DNA of 12,246 nucleotides, taken from a virus. Lineage: Duplodnaviria > Heunggongvirae > Uroviricota > Caudoviricetes. This document shows, one piece after another, positions 9,001-12,246 of this stretch. Numbering within the stretch: position 1 is the stretch's first letter; each line of letters begins with the position of its first letter. Made by a program: the position numbers. The stretch lies in IMG/VR virus record IMGVR_UViG_2548876950_000019; one strand, written 5' to 3'.

Positions 9001-12000
9001 GAGATGTTTGCTGAGTGCGCATACACACTTGAACATCATGATCACGCAGTAGCCTTCGCCGCTGAGCTTCGCAAAGGAGGCAACCAGTGAGTAATTCAGC
9101 ACGACTACAGCTTGGTTTTTCACCGCTATCAAAAACTATCATGCTGGCAAAAATGCGCGATGTTGAAGGTGGACGTATGCGCGTTGGCAATGATCCAGGT
9201 CGTGATGTTACCAATGAGGCTGCTCAATTGGTGTGGCGACTGGTCATGGCTGAAGGTGGTGAGATCGCGTGGGAGCTGGATGATGGTTCTCGCATGGTGT
9301 TGAAGGCAGAAAAGCAGGAGGCAACCAGTGAGCAAGATTGACTATCAGGCACTGCGAGAGGCGGCAGAGGTCGCGAAGGAGGAGACGACGTGGCAGAACC
9401 TACAGGCTTTTCATGCTGCGGCTACGCCGGAGGTTGTACTGGCATTGCTTGATGTATTGGACGCATCACTGGAAGCAGAGCCAGTTATGTTCTGTATATC
9501 AGGACAAAATGTAGATTCAGAAGAACATGTATCAACCAGCAAAGCGGTTGTTGATGCCTGGGTTGAAGAATGGAATCAGGTTGACGGAAGTCCTGGCGCC
9601 CCCCTGTACAAAACTATGCCACTCTACTGTCACGCTGCCTTGCCAGTACCTGTAGTGCCTGAAGGACTGGTTAAAGCGGTGCGTTTTTATGAGCAGGTAA
9701 AAAATGAGAATCCGCCAGTTGGGACTGGTGCGTGGAAAGACGCTGTTGACTGGGTGCTCGAAGAAGCTTGCCTGGCTGTAAATATAGGCATCAAAGGAGA
9801 GTGATATGACAACTTTGACAAAAAAAGAACGGGCATGGTTGAACGACTTACAGGACGTTCTTGATCGCTGTCCATCGCCGAAAAAAATTGGCTTTTACAC
9901 CATTGGCGATAAAAACATTTACCTGTATGACCTACGCCGCATGGATGAAATCATGGAGGCTCTTGATAATCGTTCGTCAATGGATTGGTGTGCTGCTGTT
10001 CATGATATGAATGCCGGATTTGATGAAACGATTTTATTCCCCTCGTCAGTTGAAAGCACTGCGGGTTAAGGAGTAACACATGACCACTTTTACCGACAAA
10101 GAACTGATTAAAGAAATCAAAGAGCGCATAGGCAGCCTGGACGTGCGAGACAATATTGAGCGTCGTGCTTATGAAATTGCTCTGGCGTCGCTGGAAGCAG
10201 AGCCGGTTGCAGTAAACGACGACATGGCATACGCATTCCATCACGCATTGTCAGATTCATCGCTAGGCGCTGATGAAGTAGAGGAAATTAAGGCCGGTTT
10301 GCGTGCTGCCTTTGCCAACGTCACTATCCAACCAGAGCCGGTAGTGCCGGATGAAATCGAGTTAGCAATTGAAAATCTCAAGCAGAAGTTAGTGGAATGC
10401 AATCGCTATAACTACTGCGCAGATGCAGTGAAGAACGTAGAGGATGCCTGCCGTGCTGTTAGCTATAGCCAAGCCGACAATCAGCCAGCATCTGGCAACC
10501 AGGCTGCCGAATCCAATCGCGGTAATGAGTGGACTGGCAATCCTGATATTGATAACGCCATCATCATGCTCGACCGCATAGATACGCTGGAAAATTGCGA
10601 TGATGACCGTATTGAGGCTGTTAAGGCTGTTTTGCGTAGACTGGCTGGCAACTCTCCGGTAACTCCGGATGGTTGGATAAGCTGTAGTGAGCGAATGCCT
10701 GAAAAGGGCCAGAACGTGCTTATTTCGGTGAATTTCGATAGCTCTCTGGTTGAACCGCTAATATGCTCCGCACGCTATACCGGAAGCACCTTTCGGCGCG
10801 GAGATGTAACGATTAAGCCGGGTAATGGTATTGAGCAAGCAACTCACTGGATGCCGCTACCGAAACCGCCGCAGGAGGTAAACCGTGGCTAACTTGCAAC
10901 TTGCCGTTAAAGGTGAATACTTCGCAGATAGTTTCCCCCAAATCTGGGGAAAAGCCCGAATGGCGCGGCTTACAGCAAGATAAGGCCTACATGATTTGAC
11001 AAATCCGCATTAACGGGGCTATATTCCGCTTCATGGTGCTGAACACACCTTGCAAAGCGGAAACCGCACCCGTCAGTCATGCGGCTTTTTTATGTCCATT
11101 TCTCAGATATGGTCGGGTAGCGCGTATACCGAAAAACAACCGAAAGGTTAAGGATACGGGCCGACTTTGCACGGTGTTCAAGTACCTGACCGCCCTGCTG
11201 AACACAGGGCTATCTGAACAAATGCAAAGGGCATAAAAATGACCAGTCAACTCATCCCCGTATTCAACGGCACTATCGCCAACGAAACCACTCTTCTCGT
11301 TAATGCTCGCGATTTACATACTTTTCTTGGGGTAGGTAAACGCTTTGCATCGTGGATTACAGAACGCATTGCTGAATATGGTTTCGTTGAAAATCAGGAC
11401 TATATTTTGGTTTCCCCAAATCGGGAAATCAAAGGTCGAGGAGGCGATCGCCGTAGCAAAGACTATCACCTCACCCTCGATACAGCCAAAGAAACTGCGA
11501 TGGTGGAGCGCAACGAAAAAGGCCGCCAGATACGCCGATACTTCATCGAGTGCGAAAAGAAACTTCGCAGCATGCAACCAGCGCAGCAATTCACAGACGA
11601 GGAAATCATCCTCCTCTGCTACATGCAGGTACAGATGGAGAATGCACAGGACATCTGCAAACACCTGTACCCGATAATGAAGGAACTTAACTCATCATAC
11701 GCGAGCAAGCTGTATGACATCGCGTTTGAAACCTTCTACGCGGTGACGAAAAACAGAGACGCACTTCTCAGGGAGGCAACACGAATTGACCAGACAAGCG
11801 CCATTTTCGAACGGGCAAGACCAATGTTAAAAAGCCTTCGGGCGAGACAATTCGAATTTTAATATCAAAGGAGCTTCGGCTCCTTTTTTTACAGGTGAAA
11901 CTTAATGAAATTCAAAGTCAGAGGTGAATGGAATGGAGAGCCATTCAACAGAGTTATCGAAGCGGAGAACATCAACGACTGCTACGACCACTGGATGCTG

Positions 12001-12246
12001 TGGGCGCAGATAGCACATGCAGAAGTAACCAATATTCGAATTGAAGAACTGAAAGAACACCAAGCCGCCTGATGGCGGTTTTTTCTTGCGTGTAATTGCG
12101 GAGACTTTGCGATGTACTTGACACTTCAGGAGTGGAACGCACGCCAGCGACGCCCAAGAAGCCTTGAAACAGTTCGTCGATGGGTACGCGAGTGCAGGAT
12201 ATTCCCTCCTCCGGTTAAGGATGGAAGAGAGTATCTGTTCCACGAA

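Follow-up and report, generated by a model that had tools for sequence, protein, structure and literature searches.

The lambda orf55 gene and its flanking terminator-like hairpins ahead of xis in a prophage sequence

How a small gene enclosed between two intrinsic terminators is expressed, and how transcription reaches xis behind it, is the question raised by the end of IMG/VR virus record IMGVR_UViG_2548876950_000019, a stretch of 12,246 nucleotides (nt) of Caudoviricetes DNA that was analyzed as a whole and is here called the window. A first-pass annotation described there a 55-amino-acid (aa) open reading frame (ORF) of no assignable family, lying between two terminators immediately upstream of xis, and proposed that both the ORF and xis depend on read-through or antitermination, as in the operon of the lambda early-left promoter PL. 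Our analysis places this segment, with a probability of about 0.85, at the distal end of a lambdoid early-left operon, in which the ORF, orf55 of lambda, is the last exo-xis gene and has its own hairpin ahead of the int promoter PI and xis. The features concerned are the following:

11239-11862, plus strand: antA/antB-type antirepressor gene, 207 aa (Pfam AntA, E=3.6e-27; P22_AR_C, E=3e-9)
11867-11890, plus strand: terminator-like hairpin of the antA module, 8-base-pair (bp) stem with a UUCG loop, -11.5 kcal/mol, z = -2.6
11893-11898, plus strand: Shine-Dalgarno sequence AGGTGA of orf55, 6 nt 5′ of the ATG, read from the sequence
11905-12072, plus strand: orf55 (55 aa; lambdap35 of lambda, ORF55 of phage 434), ATG to TGA
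12062-12084, plus strand: terminator-like hairpin of the orf55 module (lambda "t5"), -13.0 kcal/mol, z = -2.9
12086-12099, plus strand: TTGC-GTGTAA-TTGC repeat, beginning 2 nt past the T-tract and identical to lambda
12112-12246, plus strand: 5′ part of xis, 45 codons, cut by the end of the window

Identity of orf55 and of the sequence behind it

The ORF and the good ribosome-binding site described earlier were both recovered at 11905-12072, with AGGTGA complementary to the 3′ end of 16S rRNA and GGAG standing at an equivalent distance from the start in lambda-type loci. The statement that no family could be assigned has to be withdrawn. The gene is lambda orf55 (lambdap35 in RefSeq NC_001416, 29118-29285, between ea8.5 and xis), its product being identical to lambda NP_597778.1 at 50 of 55 residues (91%, E=5e-39) and matching PHROG 676 at E=1.4e-37 over positions 1-55 of 55, and an ORF55 (AAA67903.1) is annotated in the 1990s GenBank record M60848 of phage 434. 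At the DNA level, megablast against phage genomes gave 96-97% identity to lambda between 11904/11916, which is near codon 5 of the ORF, and the end of the window. Within this match, the 70 nt past the orf55 stop, comprising the hairpin, the TTGC-N6-TTGC repeat, the xis ribosome-binding site and the xis start, are identical to lambda. The repeat, expected before xis in a lambda-type PI arrangement and present here at 12086-12099, we take to be the cII recognition repeat in the -35 region of PI, a role established for lambda. As had been claimed, xis follows immediately, with its ATG at 12112, 40 nt 3′ of orf55, and all 45 visible Xis residues are identical to lambda Xis. The order orf55-xis at the distal early-left end is likewise found in lambda, JEP4 and an Escherichia coli prophage identical to this part of the window.

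Orf55 has a very small family. When 1.84 billion representative proteins were searched exhaustively with HMMER, 50 matches were obtained, with no named family linked to Orf55 among them; the Pfam search returned no family at E<=0.1 and the profile search of the PDB no meaningful match, the best being an unrelated chain at E 0.96. Even so, the orf55 segment is common in E. coli, with 2556 of the 5426 complete genomes containing it. AlphaFold2 modelled the protein confidently as beta-beta-alpha-beta (predicted local distance difference test, pLDDT, 89), and the homology searches that had been suggested as a check gave a family, lambda orf55 and PHROG 676.

As to whether orf55 is a real gene, the comparison set consisted of 12 named phages with close orf55 copies and 80 IMG/VR loci. 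The first-pass annotation had made the ORF contingent on its conservation across related prophages, and the frame is intact in 79 of the 80 loci. Among 13 sequences, the variable sites of codons 7-55 are distributed over the three codon positions as 8/1/11, and pairwise ratios of nonsynonymous to synonymous differences (pN/pS) lie mostly at about 0.2-0.5, and a few approach or exceed 1; because divergence is low, this codon-bias evidence is modest. More distant homologues of 51-57 aa, from Tbat2_3, phage 15b and several prophages, share 40-50% identity and keep the W-N-G-E-x-F and H-W motifs, and are stronger evidence for coding than pN/pS. Judged from these patterns of conservation, orf55 is a real protein-coding gene. 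Three alternative frames, an antisense one of 113 aa at 11902-12243 on the minus strand, 11972-12157 on the minus strand and 11928-12044 on the plus strand, had no PHROG match and were rejected as spurious because they overlap two conserved genes.

Two hairpins of different origin

The downstream hairpin pairs AAGCCGCC (12062-12069) with GGCGGTTT (12074-12081) across the loop TGAT (12070-12073) and runs into six Ts (12079-12084); in the RNA, the 5′ arm AAGCCGCC is followed by the loop UGAU and the 3′ arm GGCGGUUU. Its core is CCGCC/GGCGG, and 3 of 200 shuffles fold equally well. The final codons GCC GCC of orf55 make the 5′ arm, and the TGA stop (12070-12072) sits in the loop, so that the stop codon lies inside the next terminator as had been noted, but in the loop and not in the stem. 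Exactly this hairpin sequence was predicted with ARNold as lambda terminator t5, with t4 preceding lambda orf55 (Bloch et al. 2014, PMC4195576, Table 4). In our terminator scan the hairpin was among the best-scoring matches; the scan was lenient, with 14 found versus 12.6 expected by chance, which by itself is not above chance, and it is conservation, not the scan score, that carries the argument for the downstream terminator.

CCGCC-TGAT-GGCGG with its T-run, or a one-base variant, follows orf55 in 12 of 12 named phages and 80 of 80 IMG/VR loci, while what comes after the T-run belongs, across the compared loci, to one of at least five unrelated classes. These include the lambda spacer with PI and xis, the start of ORF114 (434, HK022, mEp043, Gally), a spacer of the hkaC-type excisionase (N7, HF4s), the HK140 type and others. 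Since the hairpin stays while the flank class changes, it is the 3′ boundary of the orf55 module, with the T-tract as the mosaic joint. Phage 434 (locus L001, 968-991 and 530-550) has a central mismatch (TGGAGG) in the hairpin that follows ORF55, and the terminator annotated as t'-I is a second, unrelated hairpin after ORF114; both meet their downstream flank within the T-tract. The 434 record M60848 places t-L4 before ORF55 and t'-I before xis. With ORF114 inserted, a GCCGCA-UCAA-UGCGGC hairpin stands before the same TTTTCTTGCGTGTAATTGC PI sequence; a terminator, whatever its origin, thus always precedes PI directly.

The upstream hairpin starts 4 nt past the antA stop and consists of the arms AAAGGAGC (11867-11874) and GCTCCTTT (11879-11886) around the loop TTCG, with a run of seven Ts at 11884-11890; as RNA it reads AAAGGAGC-UUCG-GCUCCUUU (11867-11886). 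It was folded as well by 4 of 200 shuffles, and it was missed by the consensus terminator scan because the stem takes in three Ts of the run. The ATG of orf55 follows 14-15 nt after the T-run, in agreement with the 15 nt given originally. Both hairpins of the window thus have the expected structure, a G+C-rich hairpin followed by a U-tract (T7 and T6, respectively). No RNA family covered the ORF or either hairpin in an Rfam scan of 10500-12246.

The 5′ flank of orf55 occurs in three types among the 80 loci. About 69 have the lambda type, with two tandem hairpins (tL4 and CTCGC-TACG-GCGRG) that together reach -26.4 kcal/mol (z = -5); eight have the window type, which always accompanies antA and which phiSTEC801-Stx1a and Stx2 phage 86 share without a difference; and three have a type without an obvious hairpin. 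Those eight loci, as well as L005 and L006, which are also linked to antA, carry the upstream hairpin in identical form, and it is absent from lambda-type loci. Going by this distribution, the two hairpins are of different origin, the downstream one belonging to the orf55 module and the upstream one to the antA module, the latter not homologous to tL4 or t4. The first six Orf55 residues also differ between the lambda type and the window type (MKFKVR versus MHFRVT), which places the recombination joint of the antA module within the first orf55 codons.

Joints were also seen at other positions in the gene. Many prophages retain only the 3′ half of orf55 (…MIWAQIAHADVTNIRIEELKEHQAA) together with the hairpin, joined to unrelated N-termini (P0057, P0064, P0077-P0079, and the P27 locus L012, 1183-1350). 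Joints inside orf55 are therefore frequent, with the terminator end as the part that is retained.

Proposed read-through to xis and alternative readings

In lambda, it is established that only N-antiterminated transcripts from PL extend to xis, whereas int is also expressed from the cII-dependent PI. Given the lambda DNA match and the identical 70 nt, the analogy to the lambda PL operon is literal. Polymerase starting at an early-left promoter and modified by a phage antiterminator would pass both hairpins after induction and give Orf55, Xis and Int, while unmodified polymerase would halt at the hairpins and give no Xis. At the same time, the hairpins would shield PI, which provides Int alone under cII control, from upstream transcription. 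The antA module, which fills the place of lambda ea8.5, has replaced ea8.5 and tL4 ahead of orf55 and brings its own terminator.

The read-through claim of the first-pass annotation stands as far as the layout of orf55 and xis is concerned, which is that of lambda; antitermination at this locus is inferred, because PL, N and nut are not in the window. Several observations weigh against this placement in an early-left operon. A search for lambda boxB, the only boxB used in looking for an upstream N/nutL system, gave no hit in the window at up to 2 mismatches, nor, at up to 1 mismatch, in the identical reference prophage over the 4 kb ahead of cIII. In the window, orf55 and xis follow a phiV10-like early-right operon, unlike the lambda arrangement. 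Termination at both hairpins is predicted, from folding, from the annotation of M60848 and from ARNold (PMC4195576). Ribosome-profiling support has been stated for five conserved exo-xis genes and not for orf55 explicitly (PMC8614690), and no direct evidence of orf55 translation was retrieved from literature that did not cover the lambda ribosome-profiling study itself. Concerning the region upstream of cIII, it is interrupted in the reference prophage by IS1203, and two ORFs upstream there matched no Pfam family. A search of lambda papers for tL4 returned nothing relevant.

The position of the stop codons invites another explanation, in which the downstream hairpin is a ribosome-gated terminator: the ribosome finishing orf55 would cover both arms, so that coupled translation lets polymerase proceed to xis, and untranslated or uncoupled transcripts stop. 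Besides encoding a protein, orf55 would then act as a translational gate for xis. The TGA lies in the loop, with the 3′ arm 2-9 nt past it, and the antA stop lies likewise just 4 nt before its own hairpin, from which it follows that a terminating ribosome should mask both. Function of the tR2 terminator was almost completely lost when it was a few bp past a translated gene (Li et al. 2016, PMC4824070), and an unrelated hairpin of -12.7 kcal/mol also encloses the stop of the 50% identical Tbat2_3 homologue. Nevertheless, we consider this unlikely, since four distant homologues (P0087, P0088, P0091 and P0096, at loci L110, L112, L113 and L114) have no hairpin at the stop, with an overlap into the following gene in three cases, the phage 15b hairpin does not stand out from shuffles (z = -0.5), and no alternative anti-terminator pairing is apparent at the orf55 hairpin. 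For the same lack of a hairpin in these four loci, a family-wide rule of a stop inside a hairpin, or a leader-ORF attenuator, was rejected, and the terminator is thus a feature of the module in the lambda clade, not of the family. It is also established that N-modified lambda polymerase ignores such terminators anyway. The further proposal, that translation of orf55 sets Xis relative to Int on unmodified transcripts, with the antA terminator acting likewise as a second gate in series, is a little more doubtful still.

The conserved DNA could also be a terminator and recombination boundary in which the open frame is incidental and orf55 no functional gene. Such a reading would account for the proteins that carry only the C-terminal 25-40 residues of Orf55 on unrelated N-termini, for the report that 933W retains only a portion of orf55 (PMC8614690), and for the DNA invariance of the 3′ third of the gene among the 13 sequences. 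An invariant 3′ stretch is, however, expected by chance at such low divergence according to a rough estimate, and the open frames, the codon-position bias and the pN/pS below 1 in most pairs all speak for selection on a protein, as do the same-length homologues that keep the motifs where the DNA alignment is lost and no hairpin is present, and the confident predicted fold; this makes an incidental frame very improbable. Even slightly less credible is that orf55 is a moron, expressed from the prophage by a promoter of its own between the two terminators. It does resemble morons in being a single small, terminator-bounded gene at mosaic joints, but the upstream T-run and the ATG are just 14 nt apart, and a sigma-70 scan found no site within 11863-11904. 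The nearest plus-strand site, before antA at 10996-11025 (TTGACA, 18 nt, TATATT), is at the same time the best of all sigma-70-like sites in the window. Furthermore, in lambda-type loci two hairpins are also packed directly against the ribosome-binding site. Placement at the distal end of an early-left operon, with orf55 as its last exo-xis gene, therefore remains the reading we prefer.

Surrounding sequence, role of Orf55 and comparison with known systems

Most of the window belongs to another phage type. Positions 1-9485 are a phiV10/epsilon15-like prophage beside guaA, encoding int, an MT-A70 methylase, RecT, a PD-(D/E)XK nuclease, a repressor, a cro-like gene, a DnaT-like initiator, P and DUF1064. 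From 10080 to 12246, the sequence matches with 100% identity, but inverted, a lambdoid prophage that the same reference genome carries at torS and in which the order is cIII, kil, further genes, Ea22-like, DUF551, antA, orf55, xis, int and torS. The join between the two parts was found in no complete E. coli genome. Contig AIBK01000414.1 of GCA_000446745.2 (locus L104) has the same gene order and product lengths and ends inside xis at approximately the end of the window; its 46-aa partial xis product, at the contig end, is matched by Pfam Exc. Other assemblies of the phiV10-like prophage (L102, L105) run from DUF551 to DUF4752 and terminase. Taken together, these data point either to an inversion between two prophages or to an assembly error at a shared gene.

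Within the phiV10-like part, the gene of the DnaT-like initiator (6436-7251) contains six direct repeats at 6690-6842 on the plus strand, each of about 24 nt and built on the core CCC-AAAAACGGGA, with spacings of 18-45 nt. They resemble origin iterons within an O-like replication gene, and two of them were called as minus-strand hairpins by the terminator scan.

The antirepressor gene ahead of orf55 also matches PHROG 377 (anti-repressor Ant) at E=5.7e-95, and antA stands directly before orf55 in phiSTEC801-Stx1a and the Stx2-converting phage 86 as well. The 346-nt gap before it contains, in addition to the promoter-like site, a match to the Rfam family sRNA-Xcc1 (RF02221) at 11111-11199, with 69.3 bits versus a gathering threshold of 53, and the same element precedes ant in Stx2 phage 86 (L006, 404-493, 65.4 bits). 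The element may regulate the antirepressor as a leader or in antisense fashion, comparable to c4 in P1.

In regard to the role of Orf55, Donaldson and co-workers (PMC8614690) likened the protein by modelling to T7 Gp2, an inhibitor of host RNA polymerase, and proposed that Orf55 might bind the polymerase, with docking to the beta' jaw. A search of BFVD returned nothing at E<=0.001, Gp2-type inhibitors appearing at ranks 20-27, and the sequence searches described above, by Pfam and against PDB chains, placed Orf55 in no Gp2 family. As far as the model goes, the resemblance to Gp2 appears real but generic, compatible with a small protein that binds some host protein and with nothing more specific. 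Orf55 is listed among seven named ORFs of the exo-xis region (PMC3824215), and, according to PMC9239242, which cites Sergueev 2002, it belongs to a group of four adjoining genes linked to a block of host replication initiation. Most likely, Orf55 is accessory and non-essential, and its binding partner early in the lytic cycle is a host protein.

Distant homologues are not always located beside xis and int. In Tbat2_3 (L013, 2489-2653), the gene lies between an N-like gene and cIII/kil, and at L112 (3001-3171) it follows O and DnaC-like replication genes in a rightward operon.

About one complete E. coli genome in two has orf55, and the gene lies in a region that blocks host replication initiation; the window gives no further lead on its role. 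The gene, the terminator layout and the logic of read-through are already present in the lambda literature and GenBank, so that the layout is real but ordinary and not new. What the comparison adds is little: a hairpin that behaves as the fixed 3′ boundary of the orf55 module, together with terminator-free orf55 homologues in more distant phages.

Lambda orf55 has the same length, the same position directly before xis and an identical spacer and hairpin, and the window copy differs from it by five substitutions, four of them within the first six residues. Among the leftward terminators of lambda and 434, the downstream hairpin of the window is base for base lambda t5 and occupies the position of t'-I before the cII box of PI, and the place of tL4, directly ahead of orf55, is likewise taken by a terminator. 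On the other hand, the upstream hairpin of the window comes with antA and is no homologue of tL4 or t4, and the annotated t'-I of 434 is a different hairpin, located after the extra gene ORF114. Finally, both hairpins resemble the ribosome-repressed terminators of Li et al. (2016, PMC4824070) in having a stop codon within them or a few nt away, but there the effect was measured, while here the arrangement is known from the sequence, and the distant orf55 homologues carry no hairpin.

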